DNA of 24,304 bases. Source: a virus (Duplodnaviria; Heunggongvirae; Uroviricota; Caudoviricetes). Below, piece by piece: positions 6,001 to 12,000 of this stretch. The position numbers were made by a program. How positions within the stretch are numbered: the first letter of the stretch is position 1; each line of letters opens with the position of its first letter. The DNA is taken from IMG/VR virus record IMGVR_UViG_642979322_000003, one strand, 5' to 3'.

Positions 6001-9000
6001 AAAATGTAATAATTACATACTATTAGTGATTCTCATGCATCGTAAGCGGCTCGCCAGAACCGTATTGATATTTACTGAGGAGCCTGTACATAGATTTGTG
6101 TAATTGCCTGATTTTGATATGTTCAATCCAACATCAAAAGCAGGTTAATTTATGGACGAAAAACAGTTGCAGGCTCTGGCTAACGAACTGGCCAAAAATC
6201 TCAAAACCCCTGAAGATCTCAGCCAGTTCGATCGCCTGCTGAAGAAAATCAGCGTTGAGGCAGCTCTCAACGCTGAAATGTCCCACCATCTGGGCTACGA
6301 TAAAAACCAGCCTAAACCGGGTGCCAACTCCCGCAATGGCTATTCCACAAAGACCGTTATCACCGGTGATGGCCACCTGGAACTACGCACTCCGCGCGAT
6401 CGTGATGGCTCTTTTGAACCGCAACTTGTGAAGAAAAACCAGACCCGGATCACCGGGATGGATAACCAGATCCTGTCGTTGTACGCCAAAGGCCTGACAA
6501 CCCGCGAAATAGCGGCTGCGTTTAAAGAGCTGTATGACGCTGATGTCGTAAGCGTACAGCGAGGGCCGTATTGACGGGGATGTGTTATTCAGCTGGCAGT
6601 GCTATGCGCCACGGAAGCAGTTCGCTGACCCGGTTGACCGGCCAGTCTGCTATGACGCCAAGCACATGGCGAAGGTAGCTTTCTGGATCCACGTCATTCA
6701 GTTTGCACGTCCCGATCAGGCTGTACAGTAGCGCTCCCCGCTCACCACCATGATCAGAGCCGAAGAACAGGAAGTTTTTACGACCCAGACTGACCGCCCG
6801 CAGGGCATTTTCAGCGATGTTGTTGTCGATTTCCACCCAGCCATCGTTCGCATAGTACGTCAGTGCCGGCCACTGGTTAAGTGCGTACGCGAACGCCTTC
6901 GCCAACTCTGAGTGTCGCGACAGGGTCTTCATCTTTTCACGCAACCAGCTTTCCAGGGATTTCAACAACGGTTTCGTTTTTCGCTGACGTTCAGCAAGCC
7001 GCTGCTCTGCCGGCATTCCCCTTATATCCGCCTCTATGGCGTACAACTGACCGATCTGCTCCAGGGCTTCTTCCGTCAGTGCTGACGGGATGCGGACGTG
7101 CACATCGTGGATCTTTCGGCGGGCATGAGCCCAGCAGGCAGCTTCCGTTATCCCACCATTGCGATACAGCTCGTTGAACCCGGCGTACGCATCCGCTTGC
7201 AGCACACCGCTGAAGCAGGCAAGATGAGTCTGCGGATGGATGCCTTTTCTGTCCGGGCTGTAAGCGAACCACACTGCAGGTGCCAACGCTGACCCTGCAT
7301 TGCGGTCATCACGAACATACGCCCACAACCGCCCGGTCTTCGTCTTCTTATTACCCGGCAGCAGTACCTGGACCGGGGTATCATCGGCATGGAGTTTGCC
7401 GTCAGTCATGACATAGCCATGAAGCGCCTCTTCCAGCGGAGACAGCAGCCGGCAGCATGCATCCACCCAGCCCGACAGCAGTGAACGCCTCAGCTCCACA
7501 CCTTGCCGGCCGTATATTTCTGACTGGCGATACAGCGGGGTGTGCTCTGCATACTTCGAGGTCAGCACGCGGGCCAGCAGCCCCGGTCCGGCGATACCCC
7601 GCTCGATGGGCCGCGAAGGTGCAGGTGCCTGCACGATGGCATCGCACTGAGTACAGGCATGTTTTTCCCGTACCGTCCGGATAACCCGGAAGGCGCTACG
7701 CATCAACTCCAGCTGTTCGGCGGTATCCTCGCCCAGATAGCTCAGTGAACCGCCGCAGTTCGGGCAGCACGGCGCCGCAGGCAACAGTCGCTTTTCGTCA
7801 CGGGGTAGTGATTCAGGGAACGGCTTACGGGTGCGGGTCTGACGCAACGGACGCTGTACTGCCGGGTCATACACCCTACCAGTCAGCGTATCGCTCTCTT
7901 TCTGAAGCCGGTTCAGATCGGCTTCCATTTGTGCGATACGGCGGGAGACTTTTTCGGAACGACTGCCGAAGTTCATCCGGCGGAGTTTATCCAGCTGCGC
8001 CTGCAGATGGTCTATTTCGCGCTCCCGGTTGCTCAGCTTTTCCTGCAGGGCGTGGATCAGCGCTTCCTGTTCGGCCAGGCGCTGTTTCAGCAGGAAGATG
8101 TCGTCAGAAGAGATGTCGTTCATAAGCCCGTATTTTACCGGGCTTATTCTGTGACAACCAGGATAAAGAGATTTACAGCATGGTCAGGGAGGTCAGCAGC
8201 CGCTTAGGCTGTCGCCAGTCGATACCTTCCAGCAGCATCGCCAGCTGCGCCTGCGTAAGGAACACTTTGCCATCACGGGCTGACGGCCAGGCGAAGCGCC
8301 CACGCTCCAGCCGTTTGGTCAGGAGGCACAGTCCGTCACCGGTGGACCACAGCAGTTTAACCTGACTGCCGCTGCGGCCCCGGAAAATGAAAACATGGCC
8401 GGACATGGGATCGTCTTTCAGCGCCGTTTGTACTTTCGCAGCCAGGCCGTTGAAGCCATTTCTCATATCGGTGATACCGGCAACCAGCCAAATTTTGGTC
8501 CCGGAAGGTAACGGGATCATCGCTTCAGTTCCTGTATCAGCAGAGTCAGGAGCTTTTCGCTGACATTGCCATTGAAGCGGAGCGTCCCGTGCCGGAACGT
8601 TACCTCACAGCTGATACTGAGGGTTTCCGGGTCCTCTGCGAGCGATTCTGGCTGTTCGGCAGCTGCATCGAGAGTCACAGGAAGTAGCTGGGGGCTCTCT
8701 GAAGAAGGTAATAGCAGCTTTCCCTCGCGCCATTGTTGTCGCCATTTGAACAACAGATTGGCGTTAATGCCATTTTCAAGAGCAAGTTTTGAGATGGATA
8801 TCCCGGGTTCACAGGAGGCAGCAACGAGCTGCTGTTTAAATTCGGGAGGATAATTAGGGCAGCCTTTTCGCCTGCCGGGAGTCACATTTTTCTGCATATC
8901 TGATACTTTGGTTCCCACTACTTATTTGGTGGACACCACTTTGTCTAATTCGTCAGATTCTGACCAGACGGTTCAGGCTGTACGCTTACCTGATGTCTCA

Positions 9001-12000
9001 CCGGCGCTGGTATCGAAGGTCACCGATGCCGTTATGGAGCAGGTAGTCGAATGGCAAAACCGGCCACTGGATGCGGTCTATCCCATTGTTTATCTTGACT
9101 GTATTGTCCTGAAGGTTCGGCAGGACAGTCGCGTAATCAATAAATCCGTATTCCTCGCACTGGGTATCAATATCGAAGGCCAGAAAGAGTTACTGGGTAT
9201 GTGGCTGGCCGAAAACGAGGGAGCGAAGTTCTGGCTCAATGTGCTGACTGAACTAAAAAACCGCGGCCTGAACGATATTCTCATAGCCTGTGTCGACGGG
9301 CTGAAAGGCTTCCCGGACGCTATCAACACGGTGTATCCGGAAGCCCGCATCCAGCTGTGCATCGTGCATATGGTGCGCAACAGCCTGCGGTTCGTTTCCT
9401 GGAAGGACTACAAAGCCGTCACCCGCGACCTGAAAGCCATCTACCAGGCCCCCACAGAAGAAGCAGGCCAGCAGGCGCTGGAAGCGTTCGCCAGCGCCTG
9501 GGACAGTCGCTACCCGCAGATAAGCCGGAGCTGGCAGGCAAACTGGACCAACCTGGCGATGTTCTTCGCTTACCCGGCAGATATCCGCAAAGTCATCTAC
9601 ACAACCAACGCCATCGAGTCGCTGAACAGCGTAATCCGGCATGCCATCAAAAAACGCAAGGTGTTCCCGACGGATGACTCAGTGAAAAAGGTCGTGTGGC
9701 TGGCAATCCAGGCGGCTTCACAGAAATGGACGATGCCACTGCGGGACTGGCGTATGGCAATGAGCCGCTTTATTATCGAGTTCGGTGACCGCCTGGACGG
9801 TCACTTCTGAGAAAAGGCATTTACACAGAATCGTGTACAGGGTCGATTTTACTCGTTAATTAGCGAACAAACCACTCGTCAGCAGACTCCCAGGTATCTT
9901 TCAGCGTCTCCTGAACAAAAGTTTTTGCAGAATCTTTATCGGCGGTGCGAGTAACTGAAAGGCCATCGTTGCTGGTGGATTTGATGATCACTTCTACATC
10001 GTCATAACGTTTACTGACACGTCGCAGCATTTCTTGTTGCAGGGCAGGAACAGAACCTTTTGGCATTTTGTTGATTTTGGCTGCGGGGTATCTGTGGGGC
10101 ATATATGGGACATAAAAAGGCCTCAAATAAACAGCAAAATCGAGATTAGGGATTTTTAGAAAAAATACAACCATCTGAAAAAACTTAGAAAACACCCAAA
10201 AACCCACAGAATAGTAAAAAACATCTATGAATTATGGATTTCAAGAGTCATTCAATCTAACTAATTGATAAATAAAAAATTAACTTTTCATCGCTTCGTT
10301 ATGGGGCATGGTTGGGGCAAACTCGCTTAACTGTGTATTTAACAGCGTTACCTGCGCATTATTATTTTCTGACATCCATTTCCCGTACACCTGAAACACC
10401 ATTTGCGCATCTGCATGGCCCATCTGGTTTGCAATGAATGCCGGGTTAGCTCCTGCTGTTAACGACCAGCAGGCATAAGTGTGTCTCGACTGATACGATT
10501 TGCGATGGCGGATTCCGGCACGCTTTACCGCTGCGTCCCACATCTGCCTTATTGAGTCAACGGTAAAATGGTCGCCATAATTTTTTACTTTCGCTGACAC
10601 TTCAGGTTGAAAAACAAAGGTACATTTTTGTTTCTCTGTTCTGCCGAATTCTCTGAGGTGAACATCGATGATATGCTCTTTGCTCAGTCTCGTTAGTGCC
10701 ATCTGACTCCGGAGAGCGTCGATTGCGGGCTTAATAAGGTGAATCACACGATTGGTTCCCGCCTGTGTTTTTGGTACTGTAAAACGGTCTTTTGCCAGAT
10801 TTCTTCTGATTATCATTCTGCCATTGCGCAAGATGGTTGCGGTTTTTCTTCATCATTTTCTTCTTCTGTTTCCTGCTTAGCAGACAGTTCGCGGTTAACT
10901 TCTTCCAGGATATCTTTTTCCGGTGTATGTCGTGCAGCAGTGAGAGTTTCCTTGCTGGGGTTCTCGTGATCAGTCTCCGTTAAGTAGGCGTTGATATACC
11001 CCTGAAGGCGTCCCGGGTAGTGATAAAACTCAGGGTGAGCGCTCCGGATAAGTGCAAAAATAGCGGCGCGGGAATAGTCCAGAATACCCGGGGTTGCGCG
11101 AAGTGCTGCGGACCATTCTTTGAACGGACTTTCTCTTTTCAGGACGATTTCTTTTGCGCGACGATAAACGCTGCCCGGAATTTCATAAATATTAAAATCC
11201 ATCGGAAGTGTGGCTGCTGCAATCTCCACATCCAGCGTATCGAAGGTGTGTACTAAATTCGGATTGCGATCGGTTTTGTTCCCGCCACCGGCATTTGCAC
11301 CGGAAGCCGTACGGGTGATACGCGAAACACGATTTCCTTTCATCCACTCTTTTGTCAGCAGACCCCGATCAGTGTAGTCAGCGTCCAGGTATGCCTCGAA
11401 AAAAGCAGTTATCAGTCCCAGGTCTGAATTACCGGGATTAGGGAAAACTTTGTCAGTGTCGCGTACCAGTTTGTGAAGGTCGCGAATCTCCAGCGGGTCG
11501 AGCAGCTTTGTTTTGTGAGAAATGGCCAAGGCAGTAACAGCCGGCAGTTCTTCCGCCCGTGCTATATGTAATGCCTGAAGTTCTTCCCGTGCAACGTGCG
11601 TTACTGGTTTTTCGCTGCCGTGTTGCGCAAGCCAGCGAATGGGCAGCTCCTGACCAGAAACCGGCAGGAGCATATTCTCCTCAATCTCCGTCATGTCTTC
11701 GCCGTTGACGTTGGTATTGTCAGTACTGGCTGGTTTCTCCTGCACGGAGGGAGAGGGCGCGATAAATACCATTGTAATGCCATCTTCCCCGCCTTTTTCG
11801 TATCGGTTGCAGAATTCGGTATCAAACACGCCTTCAGGTGGAAGGTCATTCACAACGGGTAAATGGACGCGAACGGGTTTTTTAAAGTCGTCTTCATCAT
11901 AATCGTTGTCATCCATTGCGGTAATGCAGCGGGAGATGGCAACAGATAATTTTTTTGCTGTAGTCCAGTAAAAACCACCTTTAATTCCCAGACGTTTTCT

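Follow-up and report, generated by a model that had tools for sequence, protein, structure and literature searches.

In the window (the whole 24.3-kb stretch of DNA that was analysed), a nest of insertion sequences lies in the right-hand cargo region of a lambdoid prophage of Escherichia coli O157:H7, flanked by the effector gene nleG7 on one side and a dinI-like gene on the other. An IS256-family element is split there by an intact IS66-family element, and the left tip of the split element abuts the end of a third element, a different member of the IS66 family. The features are as follows, by position in the window.

6042–6079, plus strand: 38-bp terminal fragment of the third element, a different IS66-family member, GTAAGCGGCTCGCCAGAACCGTATTGATATTTACTGAG, abutting the outer left tip
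6080–9844, plus strand: outer IS256-family insertion sequence, an IS1414 relative; it measures 1315 bp when the insert and one copy of the duplication are subtracted, and the nested ISEc8 has inactivated it
6080–6108, plus strand: outer left terminal inverted repeat, GAGCCTGTACATAGATTTGTGTAATTGCC, containing a subterminal TGTAAT
6152–6547, plus strand: 5′ part of the outer transposase gene, codons 1–132 (RefSeq: IS256 family transposase pseudogene missing its C-terminus)
6540–6547, unstranded: left copy of the ISEc8 target-site duplication, CTGATGTC
6548–8989, minus strand: ISEc8, an IS66-family element of 2442 bp with three intact reading frames, opposite to the outer transposase
6585–8123, minus strand: ISEc8 tnpC, DDE transposase of 512 aa (Pfam DDE_Tnp_IS66 and NCBIfam transpos_IS66)
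8173–8520, minus strand: ISEc8 tnpB (Pfam TnpB_IS66, E 1.2e-38; NCBIfam IS66_TnpB, 120 bits)
8517–8897, minus strand: ISEc8 tnpA, HTH accessory protein, with the RefSeq start (Pfam HTH_Tnp_1, E 1.8e-12; NCBIfam IS66-like TnpA, 97.4 bits)
8990–8997, unstranded: right copy of the ISEc8 target-site duplication, CTGATGTC
8990–9810, plus strand: 3′ part of the outer transposase gene (RefSeq: pseudogene missing its N-terminus, 8992–9810)
9317–9433, plus strand: dead frame homologous to astA (EAST1), in frame -1 relative to the outer transposase
9816–9844, minus strand: outer right terminal inverted repeat, reverse complement GACCCTGTACACGATTCTGTGTAAATGCC, containing TGTAAA

Members of the IS66 family carry tnpA, tnpB and tnpC in that order, with tnpB overlapping the tnpA stop codon, and they have terminal inverted repeats that start with 5′-GTAA and duplicate 8 bp of target. 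The inner segment shows all of these traits together with a TnpC catalytic domain. Its TnpC matches PF03050 (DDE_Tnp_IS66; E 2.1e-106, profile positions 1–283 of 284) and NF033517 (transpos_IS66; 459 bits, cut-off 180) and contains the further Pfam domains zf-IS66, LZ_Tnp_IS66 and IS66_C; tnpB overlaps the stop of tnpA by 4 nt, and the open frame of tnpA reaches a GTG at 8918. The tips are inverted repeats, identical at 13 of 13 positions over GTAAGCGTACAGC and at 18 of 22 overall. A search of the window for the pattern GTAAGCG..GC..G..CCGT returned both of these ends and the end at 6042 and nothing else, and shuffled versions of the window gave zero matches. The sequence CTGATGTC occurs only twice in the window, where the chance expectation is about 0.4 per strand, and both copies directly adjoin the 2442-bp segment. 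An inner element of exactly this length, with GTAAGCG-type inverted ends and a perfect 8-bp duplication, had been proposed in the preliminary description, and it stands as proposed.

By RefSeq naming, this segment is ISEc8: the identical protein, WP_000998048.1, has the product name "IS66-like element ISEc8 family transposase". The length of the segment, 2442 bp, also agrees with the ISfinder ISEc8 entry. It resembles ISEc8 elsewhere in gene layout, in its GTAAGCG-type ends and in its 8-bp duplication, with no difference detected, and is one more copy at a particular site. Copies at least 99% identical occur in 3856 E. coli records. ISEc8 is known to be active in O157, as illustrated by stx2a::ISEc8 (PMC6776261) and by Sp4 nu1::ISEc8 (PMC2669165). 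Given its intact ends and intact tnpA, tnpB and tnpC, the present copy is presumably still mobile.

The gene that ISEc8 entered can be reconstructed precisely. In silico deletion of 6548–8997, the check proposed in the preliminary description, regains one continuous open frame of 402 amino acids starting at 6152; within the 3′ part, positions 8990–8997 repeat the target site, and the non-duplicated coding sequence begins at 8998. IS256-family elements encode a single Mutator-type DDE transposase of about 400 aa and duplicate 8–9 bp of target. The excised protein is such a transposase, matching PF00872 (Transposase_mut; E 7.6e-119, positions 17–377 of 379) and NF033543 (IS256 family transposase; 424 bits, cut-off 150). 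It is identical to the intact protein annotated at the same locus in strain 2013C-4465, and to its intact counterparts there in O55:H7 and in the three O157 genomes that are listed as lacking ISEc8. The pre-ISEc8 state thus exists in other genomes, with the locus uninterrupted at 99.9–100% identity in O55:H7 CB9615, RM12579, DEC5B and DEC5D, in 2013C-4465, and in O157 493/89, LSU61 and F3113. In PV15-279 the outer element contains IS1203 and not ISEc8. With its transposase gene cut in two by ISEc8, the outer element is immobile on its own.

The tips of the outer element lie at 6080 and 9844, as set by 99.5%-identical copies at other loci (query positions 201–1515) and also by IS1414 copies bearing clean 8-bp duplications. 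The preliminary description was right about the imperfect inverted repeats of about 25 bp, which extend over 30 nt with 77% complementarity (6080–6109 against 9815–9844), but its ends at 6084 and 9840 fall 4 bp short on each side. Imperfect terminal inverted repeats of about 25–30 bp with a subterminal TGTAAA are described for the IS256 family in PMC7780238, and the outer element has TGTAAA on the right and the similar TGTAAT on the left. Elements of the same type make 8-bp duplications elsewhere, as at the copy in pE110019_65 (ATGTGCAA) and at IS1414 copies (GAGCTCTC and GATATGCT). Protein profiles, terminal repeats and duplication length, as well as the RefSeq annotation, agree with the original reading of an IS256-type transposase split by an IS66-family element. 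The outer copy itself lacks the duplication of 8–9 bp, having TTACTGAG on the left and GATTTTAC on the right; the preliminary description had likewise found no matching one. This absence reflects the history of the locus and does not exclude membership of the family.

The outer element is a relative of IS1414. Both are 1315 bp long, agree over the outermost 11 bases on the left (GAGCCTGTACA), encode a single 402-aa Mutator-type transposase (386 of 402 residues, or 96%, identical), and belong to types that make 8-bp duplications. Their right tips differ, the outer element ending in GTGTACAGGGTC and IS1414 in CCTAAACAGGCTC. Under the ISfinder convention, isoforms share roughly 95% nucleotide identity or more; we rejected identity with IS1414 itself, since the two elements are 87.3% identical over 1315 nt, which is below isoform level. 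On these alignments the outer element is best called IS1414-related. RefSeq labels it only "IS256 family transposase", gives "IS1414 family" to copies about 87–88% identical to it, and labels a copy that is 93.4% identical "ISEic2 family"; hence ISEic2 may be a nearer named relative.

IS1414 carries astA, which encodes EAST1, in the -1 frame of its transposase gene (PMC12585946). A homologous frame occupies the same position in the outer element, where it shares 105 of 117 nt with the prototype astA of IS1414. However, ACG replaces the ATG start and the fourth cysteine is lost, such that the outer element lacks the intact astA expected of IS1414. This frame does not count as a toxin gene, a point that matters when astA is scored by PCR or BLAST.

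The outer flanks offer an explanation for the missing outer duplication. On the left lies the 38-bp end fragment, which fits the IS66 end pattern and has its match at the end of intact IS66-family elements in L003 and L007; on the right is DNA from downstream of the dinI-like gene. In non-O157 EHEC these two flanks are separate and in opposite relative orientation. For example, in O111 RM9322 window positions 5061–6079 align forward and 9845–10245 align reversed, in blocks 288 bp apart, and homology ends exactly at 6079 and 9845, the tips of the outer element. Since the flanks are not contiguous elsewhere, the outer element marks an old rearrangement junction, and the duplication is missing because the element lies on that junction beside the remnant of a third insertion sequence.

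We are highly confident that the locus records three successive insertion-sequence events, with the outer element on a rearrangement junction and the ISEc8 insertion following; how the older rearrangement came about, and in what order, is inferred. An IS66-family element other than ISEc8 would once have resided downstream of nleG7, of which only the terminal 38 bp (6042–6079) are left. The IS1414-related element would then have become joined to this remnant by its left tip and to dinI-downstream DNA by its right tip, through an element-mediated inversion or deletion or through recombination between two copies, and either route would have removed the matching 8-bp duplication. This rearranged state predates the split between O55:H7 and O157:H7. 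Finally, ISEc8 inserted between codons 132 and 133 of the gene for the outer transposase, duplicating CTGATGTC and leaving two pseudogene halves.

In the genome collection, a 130-nt junction query gave no exact match to a reciprocal junction or to a state in which the outer element had simply inserted at nt 38 of the IS66-family end, and returned only a different junction, 82% identical, in pUMNK88_Hly-type plasmids. An arrangement of nleG7 followed by an intact IS66-family element was not found, the best matches stopping at 104–105 nt of the remnant. Had two copies recombined by inversion, another, isolated outer-element end would be expected, and the window contains none at up to three mismatches. 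Moreover, the O111 homology also ends at 5061, where there is no second outer-element copy, so a single clean two-copy inversion does not explain everything. Prophage mosaicism probably contributes to the arrangement. The rearrangement may have run in either direction, and the O111-type arrangement could be the derived state.

The missing duplication might instead have decayed by point mutation after a simple, undisturbed insertion of the outer element, and TTTACT is indeed present near both tips (6071–6076 and 9848–9853). These shared strings are out of register, however, and the 8 bp adjoining the tips match at only two of eight positions. Furthermore, the left flank is an IS66-family end and the right flank is dinI-downstream DNA that continues into different sequence in O111, and both flanks are 99–100% conserved among O55:H7, O157:H7 and O111, which makes heavy local decay not credible. 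We regard this explanation as very improbable. Slightly less probable again is a single composite unit in which the 38-bp IS66-type end, the outer element and ISEc8 moved together, for example with ends at 6042 and 8989. The end at 6042 could pair, inverted, with the ISEc8 end at 8968–8989, and in direct orientation it resembles the ISEc8 end at 6548 (76% over 29 nt). Yet no duplication flanks 6042 and 8989, and O55:H7 and related genomes hold the 38-bp remnant and the outer element at the same site with no ISEc8, indicating that the parts arrived separately. A mobile composite is also at odds with the constancy of the surroundings: the annotated neighbours, including the DinI-like gene, are the same as in the window in all 25 listed nested genomes, as is nleG7 in those whose context was retrieved. 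The apparent absence of the block 6042–8989 from any second locus in the 5426 genomes speaks against it as well.

Both elements are multi-copy in O157 genomes, with 13–21 matching places per record, and the nest could in principle have been created during assembly by repeat collapse or by chimeric joining of unrelated copies. Identical junctions in 247 independently finished genomes make an artefact the least plausible explanation of all, to the point of being almost negligible. Moreover, the target duplication at the junctions is perfect, the frame is recovered exactly on excision, and the unoccupied site is present in related lineages.

IS1414 sits inside IS66-family elements in both L003 and L007, and junctions fall within an IS66-family end of about 104 bp: at nt 38 in the window, at nt 36–43 in L003 and nt 97–104 in L007 (both with clean duplications), and at nt 48/49 in pUMNK88_Hly. 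The nleG7-linked remnant in O111, O26, O103 and O121 EHEC ends at nt 104/105. The four independent junctions hint at a preference of IS1414-group elements for the terminal ~104 bp of one IS66-family element, an idea that we consider possible but rather doubtful. If true, one insertion-sequence family would be targeting the end of another, which would explain the recurring nests and the rearrangements around them.

The nested form is present in 247 of 5426 complete E. coli genomes, counted as those holding at least 80% of positions 6000–9900. The 25 listed nested genomes are 100% identical, and all are O157, O157:H7 or have a record name that gives no serotype. The same arrangement stands in the RefSeq annotation, with two IS256-family pseudogene halves flanking ISEc8. 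The nest is therefore already known and annotated in hundreds of public genomes, and is an ordinary case of one insertion sequence within another, not different in kind from other nests with a clean target duplication and an inactivated host element.

The importance of the arrangement beyond bookkeeping is limited. The nest shows that most O157:H7 genomes have a dead IS1414-related element at this prophage locus, and the presence or absence of ISEc8 separates O157:H7 carriers from O55:H7, from sorbitol-fermenting O157 493/89 and from LSU61 (for the stepwise model, see PMC3271280). The insertion could serve as a simple lineage marker. More generally, the junctions at this locus show how insertion sequences pile up in, and reshuffle, the effector-cargo ends of EHEC prophages.

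Deletion in silico of 6548-8997, which comprises ISEc8 and one copy of its target duplication, leaves a single 402-aa frame extending from 6152 to 9810. The restored frame fits the profile for Mutator/IS256 transposases from end to end (PF00872, E 7.6e-119; NF033543, 424 bits) and is identical at every residue to the intact annotated protein from the same locus of strain 2013C-4465. The preliminary description, which held that an IS66-family insert had split an IS256-type transposase gene, therefore survives the excision check it proposed, and RefSeq annotates pseudogene halves around ISEc8.

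Within the window CTGATGTC is limited to two copies (6540-6547 and 8990-8997), and the segment separating them is exactly 2442 bp (6548-8989). GTAAGCGTACAGC is present at both tips of this segment, where a repeat finder reported arms agreeing at 18 of 22 positions. When the window was searched for the IS66-end pattern, the only matches were the two ISEc8 tips and one site at 6042; shuffled versions of the window gave zero. Profile searches returned three minus-strand frames, each a full-length match to IS66-family proteins, with tnpB overlapping the stop of tnpA by 4 nt:

TnpC, minus strand, 512 aa: PF03050, E 2.1e-106; NF033517, 459 bits
TnpB, minus strand: PF05717, E 1.2e-38
TnpA, minus strand: NF047595, 97 bits

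The inverted ends and perfect 8-bp duplication first reported for this element are thus confirmed. Copies of ISEc8 at 99% identity or more are found in 3856 E. coli records, and the element is documented as active in O157, where it has disrupted stx2a (PMC6776261) and the Sp4 terminase gene (PMC2669165).

A genome search found window 6000-9900, at 100% identity, in many finished chromosomes of E. coli O157:H7. In the RefSeq annotation of one of these, the nest belongs to the cargo region of a lambdoid prophage, at the prophage's right end, in this order:

tail fibre genes, nleG pseudogene, nleG7
IS256-family transposase pseudogene without its C-terminus
ISEc8 tnpC, tnpB and tnpA, opposite strand
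IS256-family transposase pseudogene without its N-terminus
dinI-like gene, then a truncated integrase belonging to the next prophage

The surrounding prophage DNA is strongly decayed (4289-4642, 10280-10831 and 11256-12057, in RefSeq an nleG-family gene interrupted by an internal stop, a tyrosine integrase without its N-terminus and a RecE fragment), in agreement with the defective tandem prophages reported for O157 Sakai (PMC2669165). In the neighbouring prophage, an IS1203/IS629-type IS3-family element at about 18398-19611 (L001 coordinates 24399-25612), with a programmed frameshift and an annotated pseudoknot, interrupts a small DNA-binding protein gene.

The outer element was sought elsewhere with an unoccupied-site query consisting of the excised element and 200 bp on either side. 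At unrelated loci in mouse and chicken isolates and on plasmids, copies with 99.5% identity match query positions 201-1515 only, which correspond to window 6080-9844. Because of these copies, the tip GAGCCTGTACA with which both IS1414 copies and the outer element start, and the arms reported independently by the repeat finder (6080-6109 and 9815-9844), the element is 1315 bp. The imperfect inverted repeats placed earlier at 6084-9840 are therefore real, with ends 4 bp further out on each side; apart from this shift, the earlier observation and interpretation are correct. A perfect 8-bp duplication flanks a copy of the outer-element type in pE110019_65 (ATGTGCAA), and 8-bp duplications also flank the IS1414 copies inside IS66-family elements at loci L003 (GAGCTCTC) and L007 (GATATGCT). 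Identity to IS1414 is 87.3% for DNA and 96% for protein, and RefSeq labels the two types differently; the element is best named IS1414-related rather than IS1414. Its right repeat contains TGTAAA, a subterminal motif noted for the IS256 family in PMC7780238, which describes copy-out/paste-in transposition for the family. The first 102 nt (6080-6181) match K-12-type chromosomes at 93%, in a region annotated 'hypothetical protein' that seems to be an isolated relic of an IS256-family relative.

IS1414 is defined by astA, the gene for EAST1 enterotoxin. A homologue lies within the outer transposase gene in the -1 frame (9317-9433, plus strand), identical to prototype astA at 105 of 117 nt; its start codon is ACG instead of ATG, and the fourth cysteine has been lost. 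Judged by the description in PMC12585946 of V22, an inactive chromosomal start-codon mutant found in 202 of 258 O157:H7 genomes, this frame is probably that variant.

As first reported, the outer element lacks a target duplication: the octamers that abut its two ends, TTACTGAG and GATTTTAC, agree at only 2 of 8 positions. On the left it borders the last 38 bp (6042-6079) of another IS66-family element, distinct from ISEc8, and in L003 and L007 the matching end runs on into an intact element. Its right flank is the DNA immediately downstream of the dinI-like gene. Strain RM9322 (O111) and the listed genomes named O26, O103 and O121 carry 104-105 bp of this IS66-family end after nleG7. The aligned RM9322 region (L008 2530-4305) matches 5061-6079 in forward orientation (99.6%) and 9845-10245 in reverse (99.3%), with 288 bp between the blocks; thus the two flanks are elsewhere separate and oppositely oriented. 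Homology stops exactly at 6079 and 9845. Sequence comparison accordingly places the outer element at a rearrangement breakpoint, and this junction, which adjoins what is left of a third IS, explains the missing duplication. In O111 the nleG7 cassette and the dinI-like gene have the opposite relative orientation to that in O55:H7 and O157:H7, and the 288-bp segment (L008 2931-3218), holding a 150-nt hypothetical gene, is missing from the window.

Such hybrid flanks could have arisen by intramolecular transposition of the outer element or by recombination between two inverted copies; both predict them exactly, and either arrangement could be ancestral. Neither the reciprocal junction in the genome collection nor a second end of the outer element within the window was found. 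A further break in homology to RM9322, at 5061, means that prophage mosaicism probably played a part too. The O55:H7 flanks are identical to the window's at every base, so the rearrangement predates the ISEc8 insertion.

Four positions within the last ~104 bp of this same unnamed IS66-family element (nt 38, 36-43, 48/49 and 97-104) form junctions with IS1414-group elements. The nleG7-linked remnant ends at nt 104/105 in the listed non-O157 EHEC genomes (named O26, O103, O111 and O121). The IS66-family end sites are:

window 6042-6079
L003 4316-4358
L007 3502-3605
L009 2555-2620
L008 4201-4305

IS1414-type elements may prefer this end as a target, in a sample partly biased by queries that contained it.

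This is an unremarkable case of one insertion sequence nested in another; both element types are well known, and hundreds of public O157:H7 genomes already carry the annotation. The nested form is present in 247 of 5426 genomes, and the record names of the 25 listed give O157, O157:H7 or no serotype. At 99.9-100% identity, the uninterrupted arrangement of nleG7, an intact IS256-family transposase and the dinI-like gene occurs in O55:H7 strains CB9615, RM12579, DEC5B and DEC5D, in 2013C-4465, and in O157 strains 493/89, LSU61 and F3113; in PV15-279, the outer element contains an IS1203 instead. The stepwise model of O157:H7 emergence assigns O55:H7 to complexes A1/A2 and sorbitol-fermenting 493-89 to A4, with LSU-61 thought ancestral to A5 (PMC3271280). 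Given this model and the uninterrupted locus in these lineages, the ISEc8 insertion looks like a single event that followed the divergence of the O55:H7, 493/89 and LSU61 lineages, as judged from site occupancy.
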